The notes under the pieces are model-generated. The model did no database searches, was not told the origin of the DNA, and was given only the letters and a program-made list of their open reading frames with translations. From assembly GCF_044647545.1 (NCBI RefSeq), contig NZ_CP172818.1: a DNA stretch of 64,000 bases. One strand, 5' to 3'. This DNA is from Escherichia coli (lineage in GTDB: Bacteria; Pseudomonadota; Gammaproteobacteria; Enterobacterales; Enterobacteriaceae). A program made the position numbers and the translations under genes. Of the stretch, positions 3,475 through 64,000 are shown one piece after another (the stretch's first letter is position 1; every line of letters starts with the position of its first letter).

Positions 3475-5010
3475 TTAGTGTTTCTTGTCATTCATCACAA
3501 TATAGTGTGGTGAACGTGCACGCGGGTGCAGGAAGAAGTGACCTTTTGGTGCGTTCTGACTGTTGATTGGCTCCAGAGTAACGCCGGTATTCCCTTTGCC
3601 TTTACGATCATGAACAGCATAGAGAATAAAGGGCAGGGCAAGTACCACCAGGAAACTCACGACCAGTAATTCAACATACATATCAGTAGAGTCACCCTGG
3701 ATGTTATCCGGCGGCAGGAAGGAAACAATAAACGCCATAATTGAAGTCAGCAGACCGACAATAGCCACGACCAGTTTCACCCCTTTACCACCAGGGATAT
3801 TAAATGTGCGTTTTAAGTCAGGATGTTTAAGAACCAACACAATGTAGCCAATAAACAGCATGAAATAAGCACACAGATAAATCACCACCGTCAGCGCCAG
3901 TGCGATCAGGAAGGACATGTTGTTACCGCCACCGGTATTGGTGAGGATGATCAACGCGATAGAAGTAATCACCAACTGCGAAATGACCAGCGTTACCGGT
4001 ACGCCATTTTTGTTCATTTTAGCGAATGCCGCTGGCAGCAGGTTTTTCTGCGCTGTGACATACATCCCGCGAGAAGGACCAACAATCCAGGAAGCGATTT
4101 CCGCCAGAACACCCAGCAACAGCAGTGCGGAGATCACGCGAACCGTCCACTCAATTTCCGGTGCCACATGTGACATCAGAACGGTAAAGGTTTGCATTAC
4201 CCCTGCGGAGAGGTTGATTTCATTACCCGGAATGACCATCGCAATAGACAAACCGCCAACAGAGCTTAAGCAGATTGCCGCCACCATCAGCAGTAACATA
4301 GCCAGTGGATAGTCGCGCCCGGGGTTGCTCATTTCATTGACGTGGGTTGCGGAAGCTTCAACGCCCATATAACTCAAAATGAAGGCAACAAATACAACCA
4401 GAGTGCCCACTTTAGAGAAGTCAGGGAAGAAGGTCTTCGCATCCATTTCGATAGCAACGGGGGCACCGGAGTGCAGATAAATAGCCGCTAATGCGATCAA
4501 AATAAATGCAGGTAACAGGATACCGGCGAAGAAGCCAACTTTAGCAATTCGCGCCGTGTATTTCGTGCCACCAAACTGCGTTAATGCCAGCGCCCAAAGA
4601 ATGATGAGTGCTGCAATAGTTTTGGTAATGGGGTCTTCATTCAGCGCTGGCCATTTCAGGATGTAGGAGAGTGCCCCTAACACGAAATAGAGCATCGGAA
4701 TAAAACCAATGGCGATTTGCAGATAGCCAAATGAGATCGCTGCAAATCCCCATCTCGGCCCCAGAGTATTTGATACCCAGGCGAAGACGCCACCTTCTTC
4801 CCAGCCGTCGACGGTAGCCATTTCCGCAGCACAAAGTCCCACGGGAATAAACCATAAAATCCCGCCTAATAGCAGGAAGAAGACTAATGAAAAGCCCGAT
4901 GTTGCGAAGGTAGGGTATTCATAAACAGCCATTACCATCGATGCCGTTATGGCAAAGAATCCGAGTAATGTGAGCTGCTTAGCTTTACCTGTCTGTACTG
5001 ATGTAGCCAT
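3475..5010 (-). CDS. gadC: glutamate:GABA antiporter GadC, 511 aa
   Basis: 511-aa highly hydrophobic multi-pass ORF (APC-family-like) immediately downstream of gadB. Confidence 0.9.
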
Positions 5011-5165
5011 ATTATCCCCCTAAAACGGTATTCCTGTCGGAACCGCACCTGTTTTGTTCTGAAGCGTATTCAGAACAATATTTTCCGTTGCTAATGCCAG
5101 TGAACAGACTTTGGAAATTGTCCCGAAACGGGTGTGTTTCGGGACACCGTTACCGTTAAACGTTA

Positions 5166-6566
5166 TCAGGTATGTTTAAAGCTGTTCTGCTGGGCAATAC
5201 CCTGCAGTTTCGGGTGATCGCTGAGATATTTCAGGGAGGCTTTGTAGTCTTCCAGCAACAGTTCAGCAAAGTCCATTTCGAAGCCGCGACGACACATAAT
5301 GCGCATCACCACGATGTCAGTGGCTTCACCGCCGAGAGTGAAGGCCGGAACCTGCCAGCCGCGCAGACGCAGACGTTCAGAGAGGTCGTAGAGGGTGTAT
5401 CCCGGATCTTCACCATCTTTCAGTTTGAAGCAAACCGCTGGGATGCCTTCGTCCGGGCGACCGGTACAGATGAACTCATACGGCCCCAGTTTGGCGATTT
5501 CATCCGCCAGATAGGCAGCAACCTGGTAGGAAGCGTTCTGTACTTTGGTATAGCCTTCACGACCGAGGCGCAGGAATTCATAGTACTGTGCAATCACCTG
5601 ACCCGCCGGGCGGGAGAAGTTGATGGCGAAAGTCCCAATCTGACCACCGAGATAGTCAACGTTGAACACCAGTTCCTGCGGCAGCGCTTCTTCATCACGC
5701 CAGATAACCCAGCCGCAGCCTAGCGGAGCCAGACCGAATTTATGGCCTGAAGCACTGATCGATTTCACACGCGGCAGGCGGAAGTCCCAGACGATATCCG
5801 GGGCGACGAACGGTGCCAGGAAGCCACCGCTGGCGGCGTCGATGTGCATGTCGATGTCGATACCGGTGTCGGCCTGGAATTTATCCAGCGCATCGTGCAG
5901 CGGCTGCGGGAACTCATAGTTACCGGTATAGGTCACGCCGAAAGTCGGCACCACGCCGATGGTATTTTCGTCGCAGGCTTCAATCATGCGTTTCGGGTCC
6001 ATAAACAACTGACCGGGGCGCATAGGGATCTCACGCAACTCCACATCCCAGTAGCGGGCGAATTTATGCCAGCAGATTTGTACCGGACCGCACACCAGGT
6101 TTGGTTTATCCGTTGGCTTACCTGCAGCTTCCATACGCTTGCGCCAACGCCATTTCATCGCCATCCCGCCAAGCATACAGGCCTCGGAAGAACCAATGGT
6201 GTTGGTGCCAACGGCCTGACCATTTTTCGGTGCAGGCGCATGCCACAGATCGGCAACCATGTTTACGCAACGCAGGTCGATGGCTGCAGATTGCGGATAT
6301 TCTTCTTTGTCGATCCAGTTTTTGTTAATGGATAAATCCATCAACTTGTGGACATTTTCGTCGTCCCAGGTCTGGCAGAAAGTGGCCAGGTTCTGACGAG
6401 CGTTGCCATCAAGATATAATTCGTCATTGATAATCTGAAATGCGACATCGTCGCGCATTTCGTGCAGCGGAAAACGTTTTGATTCTGCGATAGTGGAAAT
6501 AGACTTTGCACCAAAACGTGAATCGAGTAGTTCCGACCTTAAATCCGTTACTTGCTTCTTATCCAT
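5166..6566 (-). CDS. gadB: glutamate decarboxylase GadB, 466 aa
   Basis: ORF track gives 489 aa; trimmed to internal start [21 protein letters not shown] (466 aa) which matches the recalled GadB N-terminus; PLP-dependent decarboxylase motif [10 protein letters not shown] present. Confidence 0.9.
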
Positions 6567-6645
6567 TTTAAACTCCTTAAAATGATTGGATCGCATTAAA
6601 AAAGTAGGATTTATCGATAAAGTAAGCAAGTGCAAAGGACTCGTG

Positions 6646-6665
6646 TTTAAATAACAAAATCCTAA
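6646..6665 (-). promoter_or_regulatory. GAD box (GadE/GadX-GadW binding element) in gadB promoter
   Basis: Reverse complement of 6646-6665 is TTAGGATTTTGTTATTTAAA, the 20-bp GAD box consensus, about 80 nt upstream of the gadB start codon. Confidence 0.75.
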
Positions 6666-7173
6666 TGTTATTTATCGTGAGATATTGCGTGAATAATATT
6701 TTTTCATTGAAAAACAATATAGTAGGGAGCTATTGGGTGGTGGCAAGGTGTTTTATGCTGTTATTTTTATGTGCATTCTGTGCCTCCTGAATTATCACGT
6801 AAAAATCAGACCTTAAAATATCATTATTAGTACGCGGTTATTTACTTTGAACGCATTTATAAAATTATTACATAAAAATAGCGAATATTGCTAAAATCCC
6901 CGCCAACGATGTGTTGACGGGGCTGTGATTATTTTGGCAATAATACCCCGGCATAAGTATTTACCGGATGAGAAAGATATTGTTTAACGCGTTAAGGGGG
7001 GGGGGAGTGAATGTCATTCTCGAGCTCTTTATTCGCTGCCGCTCCGCAAACAGTAACCTTCCACCTTCTCCCATCCACCACCGGCCCCTCGCCTCGTAGC
7101 CGGCCGGCGAGCCCCGGCAGCCAGCATGGTCTCTGCCGGGGTACGGGTGTGGTCAGGCCCCTACTGCCCTCTG

Positions 7174-7364
<191 letters not shown>

Positions 7365-7439
7365 TCAGGCAGGGGGGGGAAACCGAGTAATAATGGGATA
7401 TAAGGTAATGGTGAAAAAAGGATAAACGAAAAATAAGAA

Positions 7440-9150
7440 AGTCTATGTATGAATACGCGCTGGAACCCATGCGGTGGCCTGCCTGCAATTTGCTAAATGT
7501 TGGCTTCAGTTAACTTTATCGTTGAGTAGATAATGTAATTGTCTTGGATAGAAAAATGTGATGTAAATGTCTATATTAAAAAGATTTTAGGATGAAAATA
7601 AACTTGATGATTAAAAAAGGCTAAAAGTAAACTAGAATGAAAATTACCAATGTAACATATAAAAATGGTGAATAAACTGATAAGGTGGGAGGAAGAAAAA
7701 TAATGATAGGAATGTGCTATTCATAAATAATATCGGGTCGGTGAGAATTGATAAATTATATGTATCCGATAGATAAAAAATGATAAACTAAGAGGGTAAT
7801 GGAATTAGTATAATGAGGTAAGTAAAATAATTGATATGATCAGAGTGATGGCTGCTATCATGAAAAGTAGTTACTGAATTATGGTCTGTAAGGTATGTAG
7901 CTCTGGGGGCATAAATTAAATAAAAGAAACTATGTTCTGAGAAAAGAAATTATTATTAATAAAATGCATTGTGTAATGATAAAAATAGTTTTTGGCCTGC
8001 ATAGCGTTGTTGATAGTGAATAATTTAGGAAAAAATAGGCCAGCAGAGTGGGTTCCCTGGTCGCGCTGTCTTTGTTTGATGAACTCTTTCAGAGTGCTGT
8101 CATCATCATTTTTCATGAGTAAACTGCGACTCTTTTCAAGGTAAAAACAGTAATCAATTTGAGATTAATTGAAAACTGGAGGGCTGGCTCCTGCATTCTG
8201 CTCCTGCCGGGCTTTTTGATTTGTTAATTTTGATTTATTGTAGGGTGGCTGGCTGCTGTGATAAACTCTTTAAGCTTGCATCTTTTAACGACCTGCGGAT
8301 TGGGGGGCAAGGTTATTTTTGCTTAGATCGTGTTGTAGATAACTGATGTTTTCTACTGTATAGAAAGGAATAATCGTTTTACGTATAGAATTGGCTTAAG
8401 TCTGTGTTGGGGTTATGCGGGTAATTTGACTGATGGGAAAAATTTGGGTAATTTCAGAATGGAATATTTCTGTAAACAGTGAGAATAAGAGGTTATCAGG
8501 TAGATTTTTATGTGGCTGCTTTTTTATCTGCAACAGGGCAGCAAGGAAACGCCATCAGCTTAAGGTCTTTGGAATGCTGATATGGCTGATAAGAGCTGTA
8601 GGTAAAATCATTGGGAAATAGCTGTATAATTACGGGTGAAGTCACAATAAAATTGGGGTGTGAGTGCGGATAGGTCTGACTTTAAGCCTGCCGAGCGGCA
8701 AGGACATCGATAACGCACATTATGGAGGTAAAGAGAATAATTGTATGATACTGTCCGTCAGTTGTCGAGAATGCGTAACCTGATAAGAATAGGAAGCGTA
8801 GTAGTTACTTACTCAGATAATGCTTTGATTGATCAGGTGAGGATTATTTGGCAGGTCGGAGCTTTAAGCAGGTAGCTTGGCTGGTGTGTGGCGATAGTGT
8901 TGGTGTGCGTGGGGTTGAAGTTGGGTGCCTTGGGGTGTGTTGGTGGGGGTGTCTTGGAAGTAAGAGAGAAAAAGTGGGTGAGTGAAGTAGTAAAAGAGAA
9001 GAGAAGAAGGGAAAAAGTAAAGGTTAAGTAATTGAAAAAATGAATAAAATGAGAAAATGGAATTGAGATAAAATAATATGAAAGGTTATGAAATGATAAA
9101 TATGTGATGAATGTATTATTTATTAATAAATATATCGCCTAAAAACAACG
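7440..9150. other. cytosine-depleted, AT-rich low-complexity non-coding block
   Basis: Plus strand is almost entirely G/A/T, with G/T-rich and G/A-rich stretches; no credible ORF, RBS or RNA gene; occupies the position of pqqL-yddB-yddA-ydeM-ydeN in K-12. Confidence 0.8.
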
Positions 9151-9203
9151 CGGGGCAGGGAATGACTGCATTTAATTTTTAGTAGGGTGCGTGGTGACTC
9201 TCG

Positions 9204-9974
9204 TTAGCAAATAATCAATCCTAAAGCACTCATCGTGTTGTCCGTGTTCATACCGGTGTGCCTTTGACAACGGTACTCCTTAGAAACTCTCTTTGGACTG
9301 TTGCCGAAATGTTTGCGGAACGCATAAATAAAATAAGATGTACTCGCATAACCACATTGTTCGGCAATTTTATTGACTGAACCTTCTACGCGTATCAAAT
9401 TTTTTGCGTGCTGCATTCTGGCATCTAAAAGAATCTGTGAGAATGTCGTTTGCTCTTGCTTTAGTTTTTTCTTCAACAGGCTTTCACTGATGTACAGGCA
9501 GTCACAAATATCTTTCAGCTTCCATGGGTGCGCCAGCTTCATGTTGACAATATTTCTCACTTTCCCGGAAACGGATAGCACACCGTTAGTTAATAGTGTA
9601 ATGAAACCTTTGCATGCGGCAAAAATAGACAGGCAAGAAAAAAGCAAAAGTTCTGAAAAATTATGATGATTGCGTTCTTCCGAGTTGAGATAAGCAATCA
9701 TTTCATTAAGCAATCCAGTCGGTACATTTGAAGCACGTAAAAACTTCGCAGGAACAGGCACCGTCACTGTCTGAATGTTAGTGCATTGTAGATATTTTTT
9801 AATGGTATTTTCATTAAATCCGATTTCTTTGAAATGCCGCTCATAAGGTTCAAAATGCGTACGAACAGCGTTATCTACCATCAGGATCTCGCCGTCAGAG
9901 AAGGCGTAATCTTTATCTAAAATGTTAGCGTTGAAGGCATGATGAATAAATATAACAGAACAAACGAGCGACAT
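9204..9974 (-). CDS. ydeO: AraC-family acid-resistance transcriptional regulator YdeO
   Basis: 256-aa ORF with C-terminal AraC-type HTH; directly downstream of safA and ydeP as in the K-12 safA-ydeO operon. Confidence 0.8.
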   Translation of the reverse strand: MSLVCSVIFIHHAFNANILDKDYAFSDGEILMVDNAVRTHFEPYERHFKEIGFNENTIKKYLQCTNIQTVTVPVPAKFLRASNVPTGLLNEMIAYLNSEERNHHNFSELLLFSCLSIFAACKGFITLLTNGVLSVSGKVRNIVNMKLAHPWKLKDICDCLYISESLLKKKLKQEQTTFSQILLDARMQHAKNLIRVEGSVNKIAEQCGYASTSYFIYAFRKHFGNSPKRVSKEYRCQRHTGMNTDNTMSALGLIIC

Positions 9975-10048
9975 TTTATCTCCTTAAAACAATAAAGTTT
10001 TTATCGATACTTTTTTAACATTTCATATTTATAATTTGCTGTTTATTT

Positions 10049-10246
10049 TCAGTCTTGCAAACTATTGATAATGAAATGTGTAAGATCTCTTGCAATGCGA
10101 CCCATTTCTGAAATACCCAGCTGATCAATTGCCGAAAAAATGGCTATCAACGTAAGTGTCAGTAATAAGACAACCACAATTACAGACATGATTTCTTTAT
10201 AGTTGTCTCTTTGCGTGATTTTGTTTTTCACTGTGGTCGCATGCAT
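10049..10246 (-). CDS. safA: two-component connector membrane protein SafA, 65 aa
   Basis: 65-aa ORF with single hydrophobic segment (VIVVVLLLTLTLIAIFSAI), located between ydeP and ydeO. Confidence 0.8.
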   Translation of the reverse strand: MHATTVKNKITQRDNYKEIMSVIVVVLLLTLTLIAIFSAIDQLGISEMGRIARDLTHFIINSLQD

Positions 10247-10493
10247 TTCAAATATGTTTATTTAGCGGATAACGTTAAAAATCGTTAATCAGTATGCTTA
10301 ATATAACAGGCTGGAAAAAAGAGGAAATAGGACTGGTGCTTCAGTACTGAGCGGAGTTTCTTACAGCTGTAGGCAGAAGTTTATATCTTATAGTATGTAG
10401 TCTAATTTAATCCATGTGAGCAAATTGCGCGATAATAGTCAATGAGGAATTCTTCTGCTGTGCGGATGACAGCAGAAGAAATGAGAAGAGGCA

Positions 10494-12773
10494 TTAATTT
10501 GATGGTTCTAATTCAACCGGAATACTTTTATAGCCAGGAATGCCACTTAATGGATCGTGGTTATCAAGTGTTAGCATGTGATTCGATTCTGGAAAATAGG
10601 TCACCAGTGAGCGGTCAGCCATAGGGTAAATGACCACTTTTAATCTATCCATGCGTCGTGAGCTACGTTTACCGTCTGGCGTGAGTGCAATAAGATTAAC
10701 TCTTTCGCCGTTTTTTACACGGCAAATTTTAGCTTGTTTAGCACTCATAAAGACCACATCTCGTTGACCGAATACACCTCGATAGCGATCATCCATACCA
10801 TAAATCGTCGTGTTGTACTGATCGTGGCTGCGTACTGTCGCCATGACCAGTTTACTGTTAAACGCTGAAGAGGGATCTTCTAACAGCCCTTTGCTGGTAA
10901 TGAAATTAGCCTTACCTGACGGCGTCATCCAGCGCCTTTCAGCAGCTGCGTTTATCAGGTGAAAACCACCAGGATGACGGATGCGCTGGTTATAGTCGGC
11001 AAACTCTGGCAGCACAGCTTCAATGTCATTGCGAATGCGATCATAATCTTCCACCAGATACTCCCAGGCTACCACGCTCTGGGGTAGTGCTGCCTGCGCG
11101 ATTCCCGCGACCACTGCACACTCTGATTTCAGCATTACACCGGCGGGTTTTAACACACCACGCGAGGCATGAATCATCGACATTGAATCTTCAACGGTTA
11201 CCGCCTGCGCACCGCTTTTTTGCATGTCAATCTCGCTACGTCCCAGAACCGGCAGAATATAGCTATGCCGTGCGGTCAGCAGATGAGAGCGGTTAAGCTT
11301 AGTGGCTACGTGTACAGCCAAATCTAATTGCGTTAACGGTACAGCGCTCGCTTCCCGATCTGGCATTGCCAGCGCAAAGTTGCCCCCCATGCAGATCAAT
11401 GCTCGAGCTTGCCCCGTACATATTGCTTGCATGCTGGCAATTGCAGCATGTCCAGGTGCATGAGGTGGGGTGAAACCATAGCGCTCACCCAGGCGAGCCA
11501 GAAACTCTGCAGACGGTTTCTCGGTGATACCGACGGTTCGGTCGCCCTGTACATTAGAGTGACCTCGTAGTGGGCAGATGCCCGCACCAGGCTTGCCAAT
11601 GTTACCTTTCATCAACAGCAGATTGACCAGTTGCTGTACATTCTGGGTACCATGTTCGTGCTGAGTGATCCCCATTCCGTAACAGATAATGGTGCGGTCG
11701 GCAGCGGCATATGCATCAGCCAGTTCGGCGATTTGAGTCTGACTTAGTCCAGAAATACGCTCGATATCTTTCCACTCGGAATTGAGAACGTCACGGCGTA
11801 GCTCGTCAAAGCCGACGGTATGCGTTTGAATAAATTCGTCATCCAGCAATGAGGGCCGACCTGCGGCGCTTGCAGCATCATCGCGCTCAATTAACAGGCG
11901 CATCATCCCCTTGAGCAACGCCATATCACCACCAATGCGCACGTTGTAGTAGGCACTGGCCAACTGAGTCTCAGAGTTCGTCAGCATTTCAAACGGGTTT
12001 TGCGGTGCGGTAAATCGCTCCAGGCCACGTTCCTGTAGAGGATTGATGGCGATCATTTTCGCTCCCCGTTTCACTAAAGCGCGCAACGAACTCAGCATGC
12101 GAGGGTGGTTTGTACCAGGGTTATGCCCAATGCAAATGACTAAATCGCATTTCTCAAAGTCTTCCAGCAACACGGTCCCTTTACCTACACCGATACTCGC
12201 TGCCAAACCCACACTGGTCGGTTCATGGCACATGTTGGAGCAGTCGGGGAAGTTATTGCTCCCGTATTCACGGGCAAAAAGCTGATAAAGAAAGGCAGCT
12301 TCATTGGAAGTGCGGCCCGAAGTATAGAATTCAACCTGATTGGGATCACTATAGCTTTGAAGGCGTTCGCCAATTTCGTCGAAAGCTTGTTGCCAGCTTA
12401 ATGGCTTGTAACAGTCGCTGACGGCATCATATTTCAAAGGCTGGGTGAGACGCCCCGCAGCCTCAAGCTCGTGGTCTCCCCAGGTAAGTAATGATTGAAC
12501 CGTATTCTCAGCAAAGAAAGAGGCGTTTACCTGCTTATCCGTGACTTCCCAGGCGATTGCTTTTGCGCCGTTTTCACAAATGTCGAATGACGCACTGTGC
12601 TTAGGATCTGGCCATGCACAACCCGGACAGTCAAAGCCCTCTGGCTTATTCATGTCAAACATGGCAATAACATCCTGGCGTATATCCATCTGCTTACGTA
12701 CTGCATTCGCTACGGATTTAACAGCACCCCAACCACCGGCAGCCCCCTGGTAGGATTCAATTTTTTTCTTCAT
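10494..12773 (-). CDS. ydeP: molybdopterin oxidoreductase YdeP (formate-dehydrogenase-like), 759 aa
   Basis: 759-aa ORF with N-terminal Cys cluster (CPGCAWPDP...C...C) typical of molybdopterin oxidoreductases; synteny. Confidence 0.9.
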
Positions 12774-16294: not shown

Positions 16295-16546
16295 TCGACT
16301 GTAGGCACTGTCGGATAAGTTATAAAAACCTTGCGTAGAATAGCGATATCCTGCGACCTGGATATTGGTTCCACAACAAGTTTATTGCAGCACTTGTTGA
16401 AGAGAGTATTTGCAAAGACATTTTATGTCGCTAAATAACATGACGATTTCATTATGCATGTTATTTATAAACCGTGACTAAACAGAATATTATTGCGAAC
16501 AAGGGAAGTGTCAGGAAAGGTCAAGAGCGACCAATGGCTTATATGG

Positions 16547-18959: not shown

Positions 18960-21900
18960 ACCAGCTATATTTCACACCCAGCATGCCCTGAGTATCGCTA
19001 TAGCCTTTATCACCTAGTTGCACACCGACATTCCCCCACAGGCTAAGGTTGTTATTTACTTTCGCCTCAACCCCGGTACGTACTTCACCGAGATTACGCG
19101 CACCATCACGGCTTACGGTTTGACCATTCATCTTCACGGCGTAGACTTTGCTGTTGTTGATCCAGTTCGCTTCAATGTAAGGCTGGAACTCACGCTGTTT
19201 ACCATTGTCACGCTGGTGTAGTCGTCAGCAGAACGGTTATCGGAACTGACGCTGTTATCAAACCAGTTATACAGCGCCCAGCTGTCAACATAAGCGCCGG
19301 TCTTATTCGCATCGTTCTGATACCAGGTCGCGTACAGTCCTGCGCTGTAACCGCTGATGCGCCCATCCGATTTATAACCCACATGATTACTCTGAGTATT
19401 ACTGTGCTGATTGGCATAGCCTGCCATGACGCCGAGATGCCAGCGATCCTGCGCGTTGCTACTCCACTGCGCCAAATCGCCGCCCTTGCCATATTAATGG
19501 CAGAGTCGGAACCGAAAGCAATTTCCCCCCCACGATATCCGTCGTACCCTGATACGCCGCGGAATCGTTGTTAAGAGTCAGGATCCCGGTACCCAGTTTT
19601 GTCACATCACCGCTACCGCTGATACTGTGCGTCATCGCCCAGCTACGCTCAGTGGAGATGGTGAGCAGGCCATTATTGATAACGGAAGCATCACCCAGGT
19701 TTTTCTGCTCGTTGACGCTGAGCGCGCTGCCTGTATCAATGTTGAATTGCCCCACAAAGCGGCTATTATCGCCATCCAGCTCTACATCTGTCCTGGCGGT
19801 TGCGCTCACGATACCCTTCCCGCTTATGCCATTGCGCAGTTCGCCAGTCACGTTTTTTAGCGTTAACAGACCGTTATTGGCAATATTTCCGCTGCCTAAC
19901 CCCTGCGTATTATCGAGGCTGACTTCCGCATTTGGGCTAATGCTGGTTAACGCATTGTAGCGTGCATTAAGCCCCTCGATAGCCAGCGTTCCCCCTGTAA
20001 CATTCAGGTTTCCGCCACCTGTCAGTTCACCCTGACTGATCCCACCTTTATTTACCGTCAGCGCCCCCTCTTTGAACAAAACAGTCGAACCCATCTGCCC
20101 GGTGAATGTCTCTACCGTCTGCGTCGATCCATTAAGATCGACGATGGCCGCGTTGCTGATGTTCAGTTCCCGGGTGTTGCCAAGTGCACCATCCGCATCG
20201 GTACGTAATGTCCCCATCTGAACGTAGGTTGCCCCCTGATAGTCGTTCTGAGCGTTGGAAAGCGAAACCTGTCGCACCGTATTGATTGCCAGATCCCCTT
20301 CACCACCGATTTTTGCCGACATATCGGCCGTTGCGCCATAGGCTCCGCCATGTTCGGCTAACGTCAGCTTTTGCCCTCCATGGATGTTCAGCGCTTTCAG
20401 CCCATAGTTAACGTACAAACCATCACCTGGTGCGGTCGTGAGGCGGAATCCATAATCACCCTCGGCGACCACCGTTCCGTTTTGCGCAATGTGTAACGTT
20501 TTGTCCGCTTCCACCTCGTCGCCCTGTAAATCACGTAACGTTAATGAGCCACCCGACCCAATAACCGTTTGCGCCTTCACCAGTTGAACGCCGACATGGC
20601 TATCATCGTGTTCCAGCAAATTGAGCGTCGTCAGAGGGTTATTCGCCATGGGATCATTCCACGGTTTAGGCACGTCGATAAGCACGTCGCCCGTCCCGTT
20701 TACCTTATAGTTACGGCCTTTCCAGGTGTAGTCACTCGCGCCGACAACCAGCGTATCGACGCTGATATATCCCTCTGCAAGCGTCGCAGCAGGAATATCC
20801 GTATCGAAAATGAGCGTACCGCCATTCATGGCCAGTCCACCAATGGATTGCTCTCCCACGTTTACCGATGTGGTATTTTCAATGTCAGACTGCAACATCG
20901 CGTGAGTAAGCGCAGCGGTGTTGTCGCGTTCCAGAGTGAAGGTACTGTCTTTCAGTTGGGCAACACCGGCGAATTCAGTCCCTGTTGCATGGGTAAAGCC
21001 AAACATCTTGTCGGAGGATGACAGCTGCACTCGCATCAAGCCATCGCCTTTGAGCGCATTGGTCAGCGTGTAATCTCCTGCGCTGTTCGTTGATGCGAGA
21101 ATGTCGAGCGTACCGGGGCTTGCAATGGTGACTTCACTCGAACCCATGCCTGTTACCCCATCTGCCGTATGTGACGCAATAGTCAGGAGGCCGTCATTGA
21201 CCAGCGTTTTACCGCTATAAGTATTCCCTGCATTGAACACCGTATGGCCTGCATCATGCATCACTTTTCCGTCTTTATCGTCACCCGTAATCAGCATATC
21301 GACCTGGTAGCCGGCATCACTGTTATTGGTATGATTAAAGACAAAAACGCCTTCGCCAAGACCAAACTCCACTTTCGTCGCATTGGTAATAAACCCGGCA
21401 TCTGCCGCTACCTCACCGTGAGCAGCACCAATGTTTAGCGTTCCTACAGCAGGCTCAAAAACACCTAAGTAAACTTCTCCACCTTCGACATTCAGCGTGC
21501 CGTTATTCGTCAGGGTTAACGTACCTGTGCCAGTCGTCCCTACGTTCATATTGAATGTTTCAAGAAGAGAGTTCTGCCCATCCACCCGCACGTCGCCCTT
21601 ACTTTTGTCATTCAGAGCTATCTGTGTATCACGCGCTTTAACTATACCTCCGGTGGTAATATTCAGTTCACCCGTGCCTAATACACCGACCTGTAGCAAT
21701 TGGGCGTTAGTAGATGACGTTTTTAAATTCCAGAGACTATGCGTTGAAATATTAACTATCCCCTTACCGGAGGCATTTCCTCCGATAAATCCATAGCCCG
21801 TTGAATTAAGGGTGGCACCATTACTGACATTTACGATGCCGCTACCAAAATTACCGACATTGATACCTACAGTATCGAACGATGATGTCGCATCCATCAG

Positions 21901-37119: not shown

Positions 37120-37199
37120 AGGCCAGAAATCCAGACTATCAATACTGACCGAACCAATCCCCCAAATACCATAATAATCGGCAATCAGACAGTAATTAA

Positions 37200-37500
37200 A
37201 TACCTAACACTTACTCTCATACTTATTTTTCCCCAAACCTTATCCCCACGACCAAACGACAAAAATAAACATCATATAGAAATTGATACCAGAAACCCCC
37301 CCATCTTTACACATAAACCACACCCACAAACGACGCAAGAAGACGATAAACCAAAAAAGAAAACCCCCCAAACGAAAAAAAAAAAAAGGAAAACCAAAAA
37401 AAAAAAAAAAAAAAAAAAAAAAAGAAAAAAAAAAGAAAAAAAAAAAAAAAAGAAAGGGAAAAAAATAAAAAAGAAAAAAAAAAAAAAAAAGATAGCATGT
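37200..37500. repeat. A/C-rich low-complexity block with long poly-A runs
   Basis: Plus strand nearly devoid of G/T from about 37200, then A-runs up to about 27 nt punctuated by single G (37376-37490); yields Lys-rich/Phe-rich spurious ORFs. Confidence 0.9.
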
Positions 37501-45806: not shown

Positions 45807-45836
45807 TTTGTTCTGGCCCCGACATATCGGGGCTTA

Positions 45837-46736
45837 TTAACTTCCCACTTTTACCGCTTTACGCCACCGCAAGCCAAATACATTGATATACAGCCCGGTC
45901 ATAATGAGCACCGCACCGAAAAATTGCAGGCCCGTTAAGCGTTCATCCAGCAATAGTGCCGCACTTGCCAGTCCAACTACAGGCACCAGTAACGATAACG
46001 GTGCAACCCGCCAGGTTTCATAGCGTCCCAGTAACGTCCCCCAGATCCCATAACCAACAATTGTCGCCACAAACGCCAGATACATCAGAGACAAGATGGT
46101 GGTCATATCGATAGTAACCAGACTGTGAATCATGGTTGCGGAACCATCGAGAATCAGCGAGGCAACAAAGAAGGGAATGATTGGGATTAATGCGCTCCAG
46201 ATTACCAGCGACATCACCGCCGGACGCGTTGCGTGCGACATGATCTTTTTATTGAAGATGTTGCCACACGCCCAACTAAATGCTGCCGCCAGGGTCAACA
46301 TAAAGCCGAGCATCGCCACATGCTGACCGTTCAGACTATCTTCGATTAACACCAGTACGCCAAAAATCGCTAAGGCGATCCCCGCCAATTGTTTGCCATG
46401 CAGTCGCTCCCCGAAAGTAAACGCGCCAAGCACGATAGTAAAAAACGCCTGTGCCTGTAACACCAGCGAAGCCAGTCCAGCAGGCATACCAAAGTTAATG
46501 GCGCAGAACAGAAAGGCAAACTGCGCAAAACTGATGGTTAATCCATACCCCAGCAGCAAATTCAGTGGTACTTTCGGTCGTGCGACAAAAAAGATAGCCG
46601 GAAAAGCAACCAGCATAAAGCGCAAACCGGCCAACATCAGCGGTGGCATGTTATGAAGCCCCACTTTGATGACCACAAAATTTAGCCCCCATACGACCAC
46701 TACCAGTAGCGCCAACACCCCATCTTTTCGCGACAT
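45837..46736 (-). CDS. eamA: cysteine/O-acetylserine exporter EamA (YdeD), 299 aa
   Basis: ORF track 306 aa; trimmed to MSRKDGVLALLVVVVWGLNF start (299 aa); DMT-superfamily 10-TM protein. Confidence 0.85.
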   Translation of the reverse strand: MSRKDGVLALLVVVVWGLNFVVIKVGLHNMPPLMLAGLRFMLVAFPAIFFVARPKVPLNLLLGYGLTISFAQFAFLFCAINFGMPAGLASLVLQAQAFFTIVLGAFTFGERLHGKQLAGIALAIFGVLVLIEDSLNGQHVAMLGFMLTLAAAFSWACGNIFNKKIMSHATRPAVMSLVIWSALIPIIPFFVASLILDGSATMIHSLVTIDMTTILSLMYLAFVATIVGYGIWGTLLGRYETWRVAPLSLLVPVVGLASAALLLDERLTGLQFFGAVLIMTGLYINVFGLRWRKAVKVGS

Positions 46737-59436: not shown

Positions 59437-60011
59437 CTACGGCAGTGCTGGCCATTCAATATCCTGTGCAGTTGACGTATCAACACGGTTCAGCAATACC
59501 CGATACTTTTTCCATGCTTCCAGCAACGGGGTTTCTTCCTCCGTTGCAATTTCCAGATCTGCAGCATCCTGAAGCGGCGCAATATGCTCACTGGCTACCT
59601 GCATCAGGTTGTTTTTTTTTCTTCCGCTTCCCGTATCCGAAACAGTTTTTCTGCTTCCTCATCATTCACCCAGGATACGCCGTCCCACTTCTGATACTCC
59701 CCTGCTGGCGACAACCAGGTGACATTCTCTGGTAGCGGTCCGAGTTCAGAAATAAACAATGCGTCCCCCGACGCCACGTCATAGACCGTTTTACCACGAT
59801 GGTCTTCAACAATATTCCACGATTCATTTTCACTGTTAAAAACTGCCACAAAGCCAGCAGGAATTTCCGGTGGGGCGATATCTGTAGAATTAGCTGGCAG
59901 CCCTGTATGAGGTGGAATATATGCGTCACCTTCACCAATAAACTCATTAGTTCCGGCCAGCAGGTTATAAATTTTTACGGTACGTGATTGTTCACTCATT
60001 CTGAATGCCAT
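59437..60011 (-). pseudogene. tfaQ: tail-fibre assembly protein TfaQ, disrupted by a -1 frameshift in an A9 homopolymer
   Basis: ORF 59604-60011 (135 aa) ends ...EEKKTT stop inside a run of nine A (coding strand; T-run at 59612-59620). Shifting frame by one A continues as [58 protein letters not shown] to a stop at 59437-59439, giving the expected 191-aa protein. Confidence 0.8.
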
Positions 60012-60934
60012 TATGCAAGCCTCACAATATAATTAAATGCGATGTTTTTAACGGTGTTTTCCGCGTTACCAGCAGCGTTAACGGTGATGGTGTGTCCATG
60101 TGAACCAATCTTAACAGAGTGCGTATGAGCGCCAATACCAACAGTGTGTGCATGTGCCCCAGCACTTGTAGCGGTACCTGATACTGAGTGGGTATGTGCG
60201 CCAGAAGAAGGCACAGTTCCATTCCCCACCACCGTGCCACTTGATGAACCATCCAGCCAGTCGAAATTCATACCGCCACTGTTTGGTCTCCTTAATGGAA
60301 CGGTATGAGTATGTGCGCCAGCACTATTTGCAGTACCAGATACATTGTGGGTATGTGCACCTGTGTTATTCGTTGATTTAGTACCGTAATCAAACGACGA
60401 TGTGGTTTTCGTACCCAAATCCGTACTGGATGCGCTGGCACTGTGGGTGTGCGATTTAATGCCATCCTGTTCCTGAGACAATACGGCCCGACCACTGGCG
60501 GGTTTGCCCTTGATTGTCCAGCCGCGCATATCTGGAATAACACCAGAAGGATAGGCAATAGCCAGTTTCGGATATGCTGCCTTATCAAACGTCTGCCCCT
60601 GCATGATTGCATAACCTGCAGGTGGCGTATCTGATGGCCACGGGATTGGTGCACCGACTGGATAAAACTCTGCAGGAGGATGAGCCGAGGTGTAAAGCTG
60701 CGCCCACGGCGACCAGTTTGCGTCGGTCGTATCCCGTCGTGAACGAATAAATGCCGGAGCATGAGCACCGCTTGTACCACTCCAGCCGATGAGTAACTCA
60801 CCTTCGCCAACGGCTGTCATCCCTTTCAGGTGAATGATATTTCCATACGCTGTTGGATATCCGTTGTTATACACCTCGTATAACTCAAGACCTGCTGCCC
60901 CCTGCGTATTGTCTGTCAGCGCGGTTATATTCAC
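60011..60934 (-). CDS. stfQ: side tail fibre protein remnant StfQ (YdfN), 307 aa
   Basis: Repeated GAHTH(S/T)V motifs typical of phage side-tail-fibre C-terminal regions; stop overlaps tfaQ start by 1 nt. Confidence 0.75.
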
Positions 60935-61454
60935 TCAGCAACCCCGGTATCAGTTCATCCAGCGCGGCTGCTTTGTTCATGGCTTTGATAATATCCCGTT
61001 TCAGGAAATCAACATGTCGGTTTTCCAGTTCCGGAAAACGCCGCTGCACCGACAGGGGGAGCCCGTCGAGAATACTGGCAATTTCACCTGCGATCCGCGA
61101 CAACACGAAAGTACAGAATGCGGTTTCCACCACTTCAGCGGAGTCTCTGGCATTCTTCAGTTCCTGTGCGTCGGCCTGCGCACGCGTAAGTCGATGGCGT
61201 TCGTACTCAATAGTTCCTGGCTGGAGATCTGCCTCGCTGGCCTGCCGCAGTTCTTCAACCTCCCGGCGCAGCTTTTCGTTCTCAATTTCAGCATCCCTTT
61301 CGGCATACCATTTTATGACGGCGGCAGAGTCATAAAGCACCTCATTACCCTTGCCACCGCCTCGCAGAACGGGCATTCCCTGTTCCTGCCAGTTCTGAAT
61401 GGTACGGATACTCGCACCGAAAATGTCAGCCAGCTGCTTTTTGTTGACTTCCAT
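60885..61454 (-). CDS. nohQ: phage terminase small subunit (Nu1-like) remnant NohQ, 189 aa
   Basis: N-terminus [29 protein letters not shown] is a Nu1-type HTH; 3-prime end overlaps stfQ by 50 nt in a different frame, consistent with a deletion-fusion junction. Confidence 0.7.
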
Positions 61455-61841
61455 TGTTCATTCCACGGACAAAAACAGAGAAAGGAAACGACAGAGGCCA
61501 AAAAGCTCGCTTTCAGCACCTGTCGTTTCCTTTCTTTCAGAGGGTATTTTAAATAAAAACATTAAGTTATGACGAAGAAGAACGGAAACGCCTTAAACCG
61601 GAAATTTTTCATAAATAGCGAAAACCCGCGAGGTCGCCGCCCCGTAACCTGTCGGATCGCCGGAAAGGACCCGCAAAATGATAATAATTATCATCTGCAT
61701 GTCACAACGTGCATCTACGCCATCAAACCACGTCAAATAATCAATTATGACGCAGGTATCATATTAATTGATCTGCATCAACTTAACGTAAAAACAACTT
61801 CAGACAATACAAATCAGCGACACTAAATACGGGACAACCTC

Positions 61842-62075
61842 ATGTCAACGAAGAACAGAACCCGCAGAACAACAATCCGCAACATCCGCTTTCCTAACCA
61901 AATGATTGAACAAATTAACATCGCTCTTGATCAAAAAGGGTCCGGGAATTTCTCAGCCTGGGTCATTGAAGCCTGCCGCCGGAGACTGTGCTCAGAAAAA
62001 AGAGTTTCTCCTGAAGCAAACAAAGAAAAGAGTGACATTACTGAATTGCTCAGAAAACAGATCAGACCAGATTGA
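61842..62075 (+). CDS. ynfO: Qin prophage protein YnfO, 77 aa
   Basis: 77-aa basic ORF (ribbon-helix-helix-like N-terminus); synteny. Confidence 0.65.
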   Translation: MSTKNRTRRTTIRNIRFPNQMIEQINIALDQKGSGNFSAWVIEACRRRLCSEKRVSPEANKEKSDITELLRKQIRPD

Positions 62076-62116
62076 AGCAATTTAGATAATCGTGCAGACT
62101 ACGCCCCTCATATCAC

Positions 62117-62542
62117 ATGGAAGGTACCACAATGGCTCAGGTTGCCATTTTTAAACAAATATTCGATAAAGTGCGAAATAATTTAAACTATCACTGGTTT
62201 TATTCTGAACTAAAACGTCACAATGTCTCACATTACATTTACTATTTAGCTACAGAGAATATTCATCTTGTTCTTGAAAACGATAATACGGTTTTAATAA
62301 AAGGACAGGGTAAGGTTGTAAATGTAAGATTTTCAAAAAATAAATGCCTTATAGAAGCCACCTTAAAAGGATTCAAATCAGGAGAGTTATCATTTTACGA
62401 ATACAGGAAAAATCTTGCTACAGCAGGGGTTTTCAGATGGATTACAAATATCCACGAAAACAAAAGGTATTACTATACCTTTGATAATTCATTACTCTTT
62501 ACTGAGAACATTCAGAACACTACACAAATATTTCCGCACTAA
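62117..62542 (+). CDS. ydfO: Qin prophage protein YdfO (DUF1398), start uncertain (62117 or 62132)
   Basis: 141-aa ORF; alternative start [11 protein letters not shown]; synteny. Confidence 0.65.
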
Positions 62543-62731
62543 ATCATAACGTCCGGTTTCTCTCACTCCTGAGCCGGACTGCATTGGTTTAATAAAAACC
62601 ATCGACAATCGAGATTTATATCTATTCGGTAATGTTTAAATATAACAAAACCCCGTAAAAACGAGGTTTATGGGTAATTTGTATTGTTGAATAGCATCTG
62701 ATGAGAAATTGATGCTAATACTATAAACATG

Positions 62732-62905
62732 CTAGATTAAATCAATCTTGATATCATAGCTTTCAAGACCAGTCATTTTTTCCCGTGCAGTAAACTGGAT
62801 ACTGGTAACTTCTTTCCCGGTCTTTTTCTTAAGCTCAATGATTTTTTTTGTTATATATTCAGAAATATCTGCTTCTGTTTTTGTTTTTAACTCTTCAATG
62901 TTCAT
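62732..62905 (-). CDS. gnsB: GnsB, 57 aa (overexpression suppressor of secG/fabA mutations)
   Basis: Trimmed to MNIEELKTKTEADISEYITKKIIELKKKTGKEVTSIQFTAREKMTGLESYDIKIDLI. Confidence 0.8.
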   Translation of the reverse strand: MNIEELKTKTEADISEYITKKIIELKKKTGKEVTSIQFTAREKMTGLESYDIKIDLI

Positions 62906-63077
62906 CATTTCCTCTTTTAGTCTGTTATGACTGTCCTGGTACACAGTAGTGTCAATTATATGGAGCAAACGTATAAAAGATAAGATGAAACATCGCAATA
63001 ATCAACATACGACGGTCTAAATTTCACACAAACAGATAAAGATGATTATCATTTATTATCAATGCATTAGAATCAAA

Positions 63078-63347
63078 TCAATTCAAGAGTCTCATTGCTG
63101 CTTCCAGAATTTCTTCTGAAGTTACATGTCGATCCGCTGCTACATAAATGACTTTATGATCTCCGGTCAGAGATGGAAACCCTGCAGCCATTACAGTGAG
63201 GTGTGTTGTTTCGCCATTTGGATATTCACGCATGATGGTGTTAACTCCGGTCATCACTGGCACTACCATTGCTGGTTCAGAGTTAAAAAAAACTATTATT
63301 TTTTTCATAATGTTACCGTAATATGTGAGTATCCATCGACTAGACAC
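63078..63347 (-). CDS. ynfN: Qin prophage small protein YnfN; true start probably internal (about 51 aa, MREYPNGETTHL...)
   Basis: ORF track 89 aa; located immediately downstream of cspI as in K-12; start not resolvable from sequence alone. Confidence 0.55.
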   Translation of the reverse strand: MSSRWILTYYGNIMKKIIVFFNSEPAMVVPVMTGVNTIMREYPNGETTHLTVMAAGFPSLTGDHKVIYVAADRHVTSEEILEAAMRLLN

Positions 63348-63579
63348 TAAGCAAAAAAGCTCCCGAAGGAGCCTTCATTTTCACTTTCTTAAATCTAACG
63401 ACAGATGGCTAACATTTAAGTATTGTGAAATATTATCAAATGTAATCATCATTGATTTACAAAAGATACATTTTGCCCCGAAAGGATTTCTGTCAGAAAC
63501 ATCAAAAGATGATGTTCTATACTGAGAACCATGGCAACACGGGCATCTAAAGTGAATATGGTTTGTAATATTTTCTACC

Positions 63580-63792
63580 TCAAAGTGCCACTACATGAAC
63601 AGCTGCAGGGCCTTTAGGTCCGTTCTCAATACCAAATTCGACTTCCTGATTCTCAGTTAACGTTTTGAAATCGTTGCTCTGAATAGCTGAGAAATGCACA
63701 AACACATCTTTGCTACCATCTTTCGGCGTGATGAAACCAAAACCTTTTTCAGGGTTAAACCATTTCACTAAACCAGTCATTTTGTTAGACAT
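63580..63792 (-). CDS. cspI: cold-shock protein CspI, 70 aa
   Basis: [38 protein letters not shown]... with RNP1 motif KGFGFI and RNP2-like VFVHF; long AT-rich 5-prime leader upstream (63793-64000) as typical for csp genes. Confidence 0.9.
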
Positions 63793-64000
63793 CATTATTA
63801 CCTTTTGAAGAAGTTAGCCCTTGGGCAGAATGGTCCGAAAAAAAAATATCAGAGAGAAAAACCAACAAGGAAATCTCAAGAGGTACAAATAATAAAATTA
63901 TAACAATGACTGCTTCAGATAATTTTGTAACAAACCAGAACACCATTAACGCATGATTAACCAACCATAGCAAGGATTACTTTTGTAAAGAAAAACACAC

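Follow-up and report, generated by a model that had tools for sequence, protein, structure and literature searches.

A cytosine-poor block in an Escherichia coli assembly is very probably a sequencing or consensus error over the ydeM-ydeN locus

Composition and extent of the cytosine-poor block

The cytosine-poor block at 7440-9150 of the window, which is the whole 64-kb stretch of Escherichia coli DNA analysed here, is a deletion-riddled image of the pqqL remnant, ydeM, ydeN, the ydeN-ydeO intergenic region, and the ydeO terminator. Very probably, the block arose through a local error of sequencing or consensus calling in the deposited long-contig assembly and is not a biological element. According to this explanation, the true sequence is the ordinary locus of gadB, the pqqL remnant, ydeM, ydeN, and ydeO, and the source organism very probably has a normal locus at this position. 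The coordinates 7440-9150, given in the initial annotation, were too narrow, as the lesion, denoted here as lesion 1, spans 6996 to approximately 9220 and includes a poly-G tract. That annotation overlooked the identity of the block, the adjoining poly-G tract, and a second lesion at approximately 37.2-37.5 kb.

A sliding-window composition check confirmed that the plus strand is poor in cytosine at 7440-9150, with A, C, G, and T at 33.0, 10.6, 25.7, and 30.7%, respectively. The remaining 1711-nt windows of the 64-kb stretch contained 24.8% C on average (standard deviation 2.2%, range 18.4 to approximately 30%), and the lowest C content across 100 kb of one reference E. coli was 17.2%. The deficit therefore lies approximately 6.5 standard deviations under the mean, far beyond chance, and it is strand-asymmetric, in that C is low and G is not depleted. 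The description of the block as nearly devoid of cytosine was an overstatement, since 181 C's are left in it and 100-nt bins range from 0% (9000-9099) up to 18% (8100-8299). The G/T-rich (approximately 8870-8950) and G/A-rich (approximately 8950-9060) sub-blocks were found where they had been reported.

When ORFs that avoid the poly-G tract were considered, the longest were at most 66 aa, and an Rfam search of 6500-9700 returned nothing at E ≤ 1. Neither an intact ORF with homologues nor a structured RNA match was found, in agreement with the initial annotation. Its core judgement, that a biological function is unlikely and that the small ORFs should not be annotated, is upheld.

The block occupies the native site of pqqL-ydeM-ydeN

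In a megablast search, 7400-9200 matched approximately 5,380 of 5,426 complete E. coli genomes, in pieces and at approximately 82% identity, and the annotated features beneath the matches were ydeM, encoding an anaerobic sulfatase maturase, and ydeN, encoding a sulfatase. The earlier statement that the block contains no recognisable gene thus holds at the level of ORFs and RNA but not at the DNA level. Coverage of the block of at least 80% was obtained in none of the 5,426 complete E. coli genomes, and an exact 48-mer scan of the GTDB species representative genomes gave no matches to the lesion. The text is private to one assembly and absent in relatives.

The flanks at 5000-6988 (gadB side) and at 9050-12000 (ydeO, safA, and ydeP) are 96-98% identical to E. 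coli genomes. The interval between them aligned with ydeM and ydeN at 75-82% identity, with 56-108 gap openings per alignment. Because the gadB and ydeO-safA-ydeP flanks are ordinary, the block occupies the native site of pqqL-(yddB-yddA)-ydeM-ydeN; it is collinear with the conserved native locus, and the flanking synteny is correct. Compared with a reference of the strain SC477 type (L002, 4988-9400), approximately 4.3 kb is compressed to approximately 2.2 kb here. The locus is structurally polymorphic in E. coli, with pqqL-yddAB deleted in L002 and ydeN truncated in a second reference (L001). Strain BS-01 carries a normal locus, with an identity of only 96.7-97.6%.

According to the initial annotation, finding a natural element that matches the block significantly in a database would overturn its judgement. 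Such matches literally exist, with E values of 1e-54 to 1e-107, yet their form favours an artefact because they are collinear, nearly deletion-only, and both base- and strand-specific.

Anatomy of lesion 1

At the left edge of lesion 1 (6996-7174), the normal text breaks off within approximately 10 nt, just past the gadB-pqqL intergenic region. Retention in this segment is approximately 25-40%, and the remnant turns C/G-rich (7022-7174) with the loss of A and T. Judged by its position, the segment would represent the 3' part of the pqqL remnant, an assignment that shuffled sequences fit equally well. Before the lesion, a few small indels and substitutions against the references were seen at 6940-6965 in the gadB-pqqL intergenic region, which could be natural variation or the outermost lesion fringe. 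Following the left edge, the G-only block at 7175-7362 consists of poly-G runs of 48 nt (7175-7222) and 114 nt (7249-7362) with a 26-nt G/C/T island between them. This block sits at the expected place of the remaining pqqL remnant and contains 173 G's, compared with 183 in the assigned reference interval (L002 5500-6200). The poly-G runs yield spurious poly-Gly ORFs on the plus strand and poly-Pro ORFs on the minus strand, at lengths of 99-130 aa.

Degraded ydeM and the region of a small yneP-like ORF occupy 7363-8183 on the minus strand (BLAST E 1e-74 to 1e-82), where ydeM measures approximately 820 nt, compared with 1158 nt in the references. Here, G and A survive first (7363-7420), followed by A, G, and T with C mostly gone. 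When this region was aligned globally with cheap deletions, 288 of 297 and 518 of 530 bases fell in the order of the reference, and shuffled copies required 52-146 insertions. Throughout 7420-8870, A, G, and T survive and C retention is 0.12-0.6, with a near-normal island at 8061-8149. The degraded 3' half of ydeN lies at 8212-8874 on the minus strand (BLAST E 1e-98 to 1e-107). Its C retention is approximately 0.5, that of the other bases is 0.77-0.88, and some losses take the form of 50-80 nt blocks; 668 of its 685 bases match, compared with 504 in shuffles.

The heaviest compression is seen at 8875-9050 on the minus strand, where approximately 1.05 kb of reference is reduced to 176 nt, a G/T-rich block followed by a G/A-rich one with a C retention of 3%. 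Based on the flanking anchors, this segment would correspond to the 5' half of ydeN and its upstream region, although shuffled sequences embed equally well. For 7022-7174 and 8875-9050, projection onto the retained alphabet combined with cheap-deletion alignment had no power to discriminate, with a score of 62 against 60.2 +/- 2.6 for shuffled sequences. In the ydeN-ydeO intergenic region (9051-9129), residue-by-residue alignment revealed a pure C dropout. From approximately 9059 to 9129, all reference C's are missing and all A, G, and T are present, and only the first approximately 8 bases of the segment still lose others; in the retention profile, the bin at 9300 gave 0.00 for C, 0.97 for A, and 1.00 for G. 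C calls return to normal abruptly at approximately 9130, and alignment to the reference shows scattered deletions over a right fringe at 9130-9222 on the minus strand. Within this fringe, the ydeO terminator hairpin (approximately 9150-9175) has lost its right arm, as the reference GGGGCAG...CTGCCCC is changed to CTG---CA, and the final codons and the stop codon of ydeO are changed as well. Along lesion 1 as a whole, the retained alphabet runs from C/G to G only, G and A, A/G/T, G/T, G/A, and finally pure C loss.

Bases are deleted and not substituted

To describe the errors base by base, we used the two BLAST blocks at 7659-8189 and 8211-8874. The reference C's deleted in these blocks were 72 of 125 and 84 of 168, respectively, and a single C in each was changed to T. 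Pooled over both blocks, 156 of 293 C's are absent and 2 of 293 are converted to T, while A, G, and T are deleted at rates of 8-18% in both. Over the lesion in general, the C loss is approximately 55-60%. The blocks lack 138 and 166 reference bases through 85 and 108 gap openings, respectively, and each contains 12-16 mismatches and no insertions. This number of mismatches is at the level of natural divergence. The spectrum is hence of a technical type, with deletions far exceeding substitutions and with base and strand specificity.

Base counts between anchors gave the same picture, with ratios of window to reference of 0.42-0.49 for C, 0.88-0.90 for G, 0.83-0.95 for A, and 0.77-0.80 for T. 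In the cheap-deletion alignments of the three segments in 7363-8874, 97-98% of the bases form an ordered subsequence of the reference, and the inserted window bases required were 9-17 per segment, compared with 52-181 for shuffled copies.

Within 7440-8860, C loss is stochastic, with approximately 0.4 of the C's kept and a weak influence of neighbouring bases. T retention depends on run length, falling from 0.86 for single T's to 0.55 for runs of 4 or more, and A and G runs are uncompressed. A deterministic filter, in which each base type is fully on or off, fails for 7440-8860 owing to the stochastic C retention and the T-run effect. Such an all-or-none filter does fit approximately 9059-9129 and the G-only block. 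The order of base loss in lesion 1 is non-monotonic, as retention of all bases is approximately 0.85 at 8061-8149 and then drops.

A second lesion and a clean background

The whole stretch was compared with NZ_CP027447, the closest complete genome found (98-99% identity), and collinearity collapses only at 6989-9060 and 37304-37487. The other breaks against this genome are ordinary presence/absence differences. The second collapse belongs to lesion 2 (approximately 37150-37487), which overlies the 5' part of a gene for a sensor diguanylate cyclase and the intergenic spacer that precedes yneG. In lesion 2, the loss begins with G and proceeds to T and then to C. A is retained at 100% and in part over-called, so that poly-A runs of 13, 28, 10, 16, and 17 nt appear before perfect sequence resumes abruptly at 37488. 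The damage therefore recurs at an unrelated locus of the same assembly with a complementary loss order. On the plus strand, the first-lost base is C in the left lesion and G in the right lesion. The last surviving base in the read frame differs between the lesions, being C in one and A in the other.

Both lesions decay outward from a clean block of approximately 28 kb (9.2-37.1 kb), and their outer ends, at 6996 and 37487, are abrupt. This arrangement suggests a unit of approximately 30.5 kb (6996-37487), be it a read, a unitig, or a bridge, whose ends were degraded when it was linked to the adjacent sequence.

A handful of indels were present in the 57 kb aligned outside the lesions. In 14 genes, third codon positions account for 161 of 204 substitutions (79%), and no internal stops were found. 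Considering the few indels and the third-position bias, the differences outside the lesions reflect natural divergence, and the remainder of the assembly is well polished.

Relative to strain 2014C-3075, the window shows ordinary structural differences near 16372, at 19218-19485, and at 45808-45847. In comparison with that strain, it lacks approximately 3.3 kb carrying the ydeT usher, chaperone, and fimA, which K-12-like strains lack as well, indels occur within the ECSE_1600 autotransporter gene, and a 6.3-kb island with PTS, porin, and 6-phospho-beta-glucosidase genes is absent between marB and eamA. The alignments flanking these differences are nearly indel-free, with 38 bases unaligned at 45809-45846. 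The end of the window (59548-64000) is a low-GC (33-36%) segment of a Qin-like cryptic prophage with pinQ, tfaQ, nohA, ydfO, and tail-fibre genes, which is 93-96% identical to other E. coli and looks natural.

Products of lesion 1 in public records

A 66-aa ORF inside lesion 1 (7916-8116, minus strand) has an exact match in a public protein collection, and the match comes from one NCBI contig only, 4,499,902 bp in length. YdeO (9204-9974, minus strand) is 256 aa long here and ends in ...SALGLIIC, in contrast with the normal protein of 253 aa, which ends in ...SALAI. The altered C-terminus probably stems from the lesion fringe. The 256-aa form is identical to WP_400165254.1, which NCBI has named YdeO and which was seen on the same single contig only. 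Since both the lesion-derived ORF and the altered YdeO are already on the NCBI record, the error belongs to the deposited assembly.

Possible origin of the lesions

In the explanation that we favour, the consensus over approximately 4.3 kb would have been drawn from data that lacked calls for particular bases on one strand. Missed bases would simply be omitted, leaving deletions and not substitutions, and the set of bases that pass would change block by block, which could produce the C-poor stretch, the G/T and G/A blocks, and the G-only poly-G. Most likely, each lesion represents a degraded read end, contributed by one or very few long reads of a single strand. Such bad tails may have come to lie at junctions between reads or contigs, beyond the repair of polishing, since good reads would no longer align there. 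Such a cause is favoured because the outer boundaries are abrupt, the decay runs outward, the first-lost base is complementary between the lesions, and the loss is strand-asymmetric. The complementary first loss would reflect the same base failing first in oppositely oriented reads, and read support at the lesion would be low or confined to a single strand. The simple picture of one fading channel is nevertheless incomplete, because the loss in lesion 1 is non-monotonic and the last base differs between the lesions. Our literature search found no published account of exactly such a base-selective error profile for a named platform or polisher.

To our knowledge, the base-by-base loss of more than half of one nucleotide from a single strand is not produced by any mutational process, nor is the removal of all bases but G over approximately 700 nt. 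In two-colour Illumina chemistry, an absent signal is called as G, which gives reads poly-G tails. Lesion 1 resembles these tails in having long poly-G of technical origin. The tails, however, arise by substitution to G at unchanged length, whereas the lesion deletes other bases and its G's number 173 against 183, and lesion 2 ends in poly-A and not in poly-G. The strand-specific loss of C is likewise shared with bisulfite or cytidine-deaminase conversion; that chemistry turns C into T at constant length, in contrast with the C's of the lesion, which are deleted in 156 of 293 cases and converted in 2 of 293.

Assemblies that stop at the layout stage have the error rates of raw reads, and junk reads and glitches occur in long-read sets (PMC6966772). 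Polishers mend small errors and may miss larger ones (PMC9980784). Low-quality stretches of long-read or hybrid bacterial assemblies include junk or glitch segments of raw reads, layout sequence left unpolished, and long-read bridges beyond the reach of polishers. Lesion 1 is like these stretches in that it is a short lesion with abrupt boundaries in an accurate multi-Mb contig, with deletion and homopolymer errors that split genes into spurious small ORFs. Unlike the usual stretches of this kind, it is far more base-selective, with 1-3 bases kept per block and their order preserved, and it preserves the number of G's as well.

As another technical route, the artefact could have come from a consensus or polishing step at a mixed-allele or depth-collapsed locus and not from a bad read, which we regard as possible though rather unlikely. 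At a near 50:50 pqqL-ydeN deletion, for example, 'gap' or 'base' would be chosen position by position, and bases with weaker support, such as C's and long T runs, would fall below the threshold while others stay. The nearly deletion-only changes, the dependence of retention on base type and T-run length (0.86 against 0.55), and the structural polymorphism of the locus among E. coli (L001 and L002) all fit this route, and balanced heterogeneity is a documented source of polishing mistakes (PMC9980784). Lesion 1 also shares with the heterogeneity mistakes described by Wick et al. (2023, PMC9980784) a dense local error cluster at a strain-variable locus. However, support pooled over both strands should affect C and G alike, and the retained fractions are 0.42-0.49 for C and 0.88-0.90 for G. 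A single deletion allele also predicts an approximately constant gap fraction, not successive alphabets or a G-only stretch, so that the strand asymmetry and the changing retained alphabets of the lesion differ from two-allele heterogeneity. Furthermore, lesion 2 lies at a site without structural difference in either reference compared, and its decay is one-directional. It is more doubtful still, and we consider it improbable, that the consensus failed because the sequenced culture truly carried a near-50:50 deletion polymorphism at this locus.

The text could also be physically real, as a natural pseudogenised or hypermutated ydeM-ydeN region that arose, for example, by deaminase-type C editing or extreme decay. 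It is, after all, present in the deposited genome, and ydeM, ydeN, and pqqL are dispensable genes that not all strains carry. We give this reading almost no credence. Deaminase- or bisulfite-type depletion was rejected, as the 2 of 293 C's changed to T stand against 156 absent and length is not conserved. A natural pseudogene was rejected on the basis of the deletion-only, strand-asymmetric spectrum, the absence of the text from all 5,426 genomes, and the clean, third-position-biased flanks; natural decay would add substitutions and be common to relatives, and the flanks display the normal divergence of purifying selection with almost no indels. The complementary pattern at an unrelated locus 28 kb away also speaks against real DNA. 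It is equally far-fetched that a real chromosomal copy was made by template-directed, base-selective nucleotide-skipping copying, with a complementary second case 28 kb off. One-base-free cassettes exist as laboratory tools and the pattern looks artificial, but an engineered or synthetic insert (a C-less or G-less cassette, or designed low-complexity DNA), or corruption in preparing the window, is hardly credible, given that the block follows the native genes as a subsequence, in order and at the position where they belong, and that lesion-derived proteins are already in NCBI-derived records from one contig, and any corruption therefore predates the present analysis.

Implications for the deposited genome

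The significance of the error in the deposited assembly is one of data hygiene only. Lesion 1 erases ydeM, ydeN, and the pqqL remnant from the record and shortens the locus by at least 2 kb. The ydeO terminator is lost, and the altered YdeO is now the RefSeq protein WP_400165254.1. Spurious small, poly-Gly, and poly-Pro ORFs arise, at least one of which is in a public protein collection. A simple screen for single-base depletion on one strand, homopolymers of at least 40 nt, and deletion-only divergence from relatives would detect such lesions. Any pan-genome, pseudogene, or presence/absence study built on this assembly would register spurious gene losses and spurious novel proteins.
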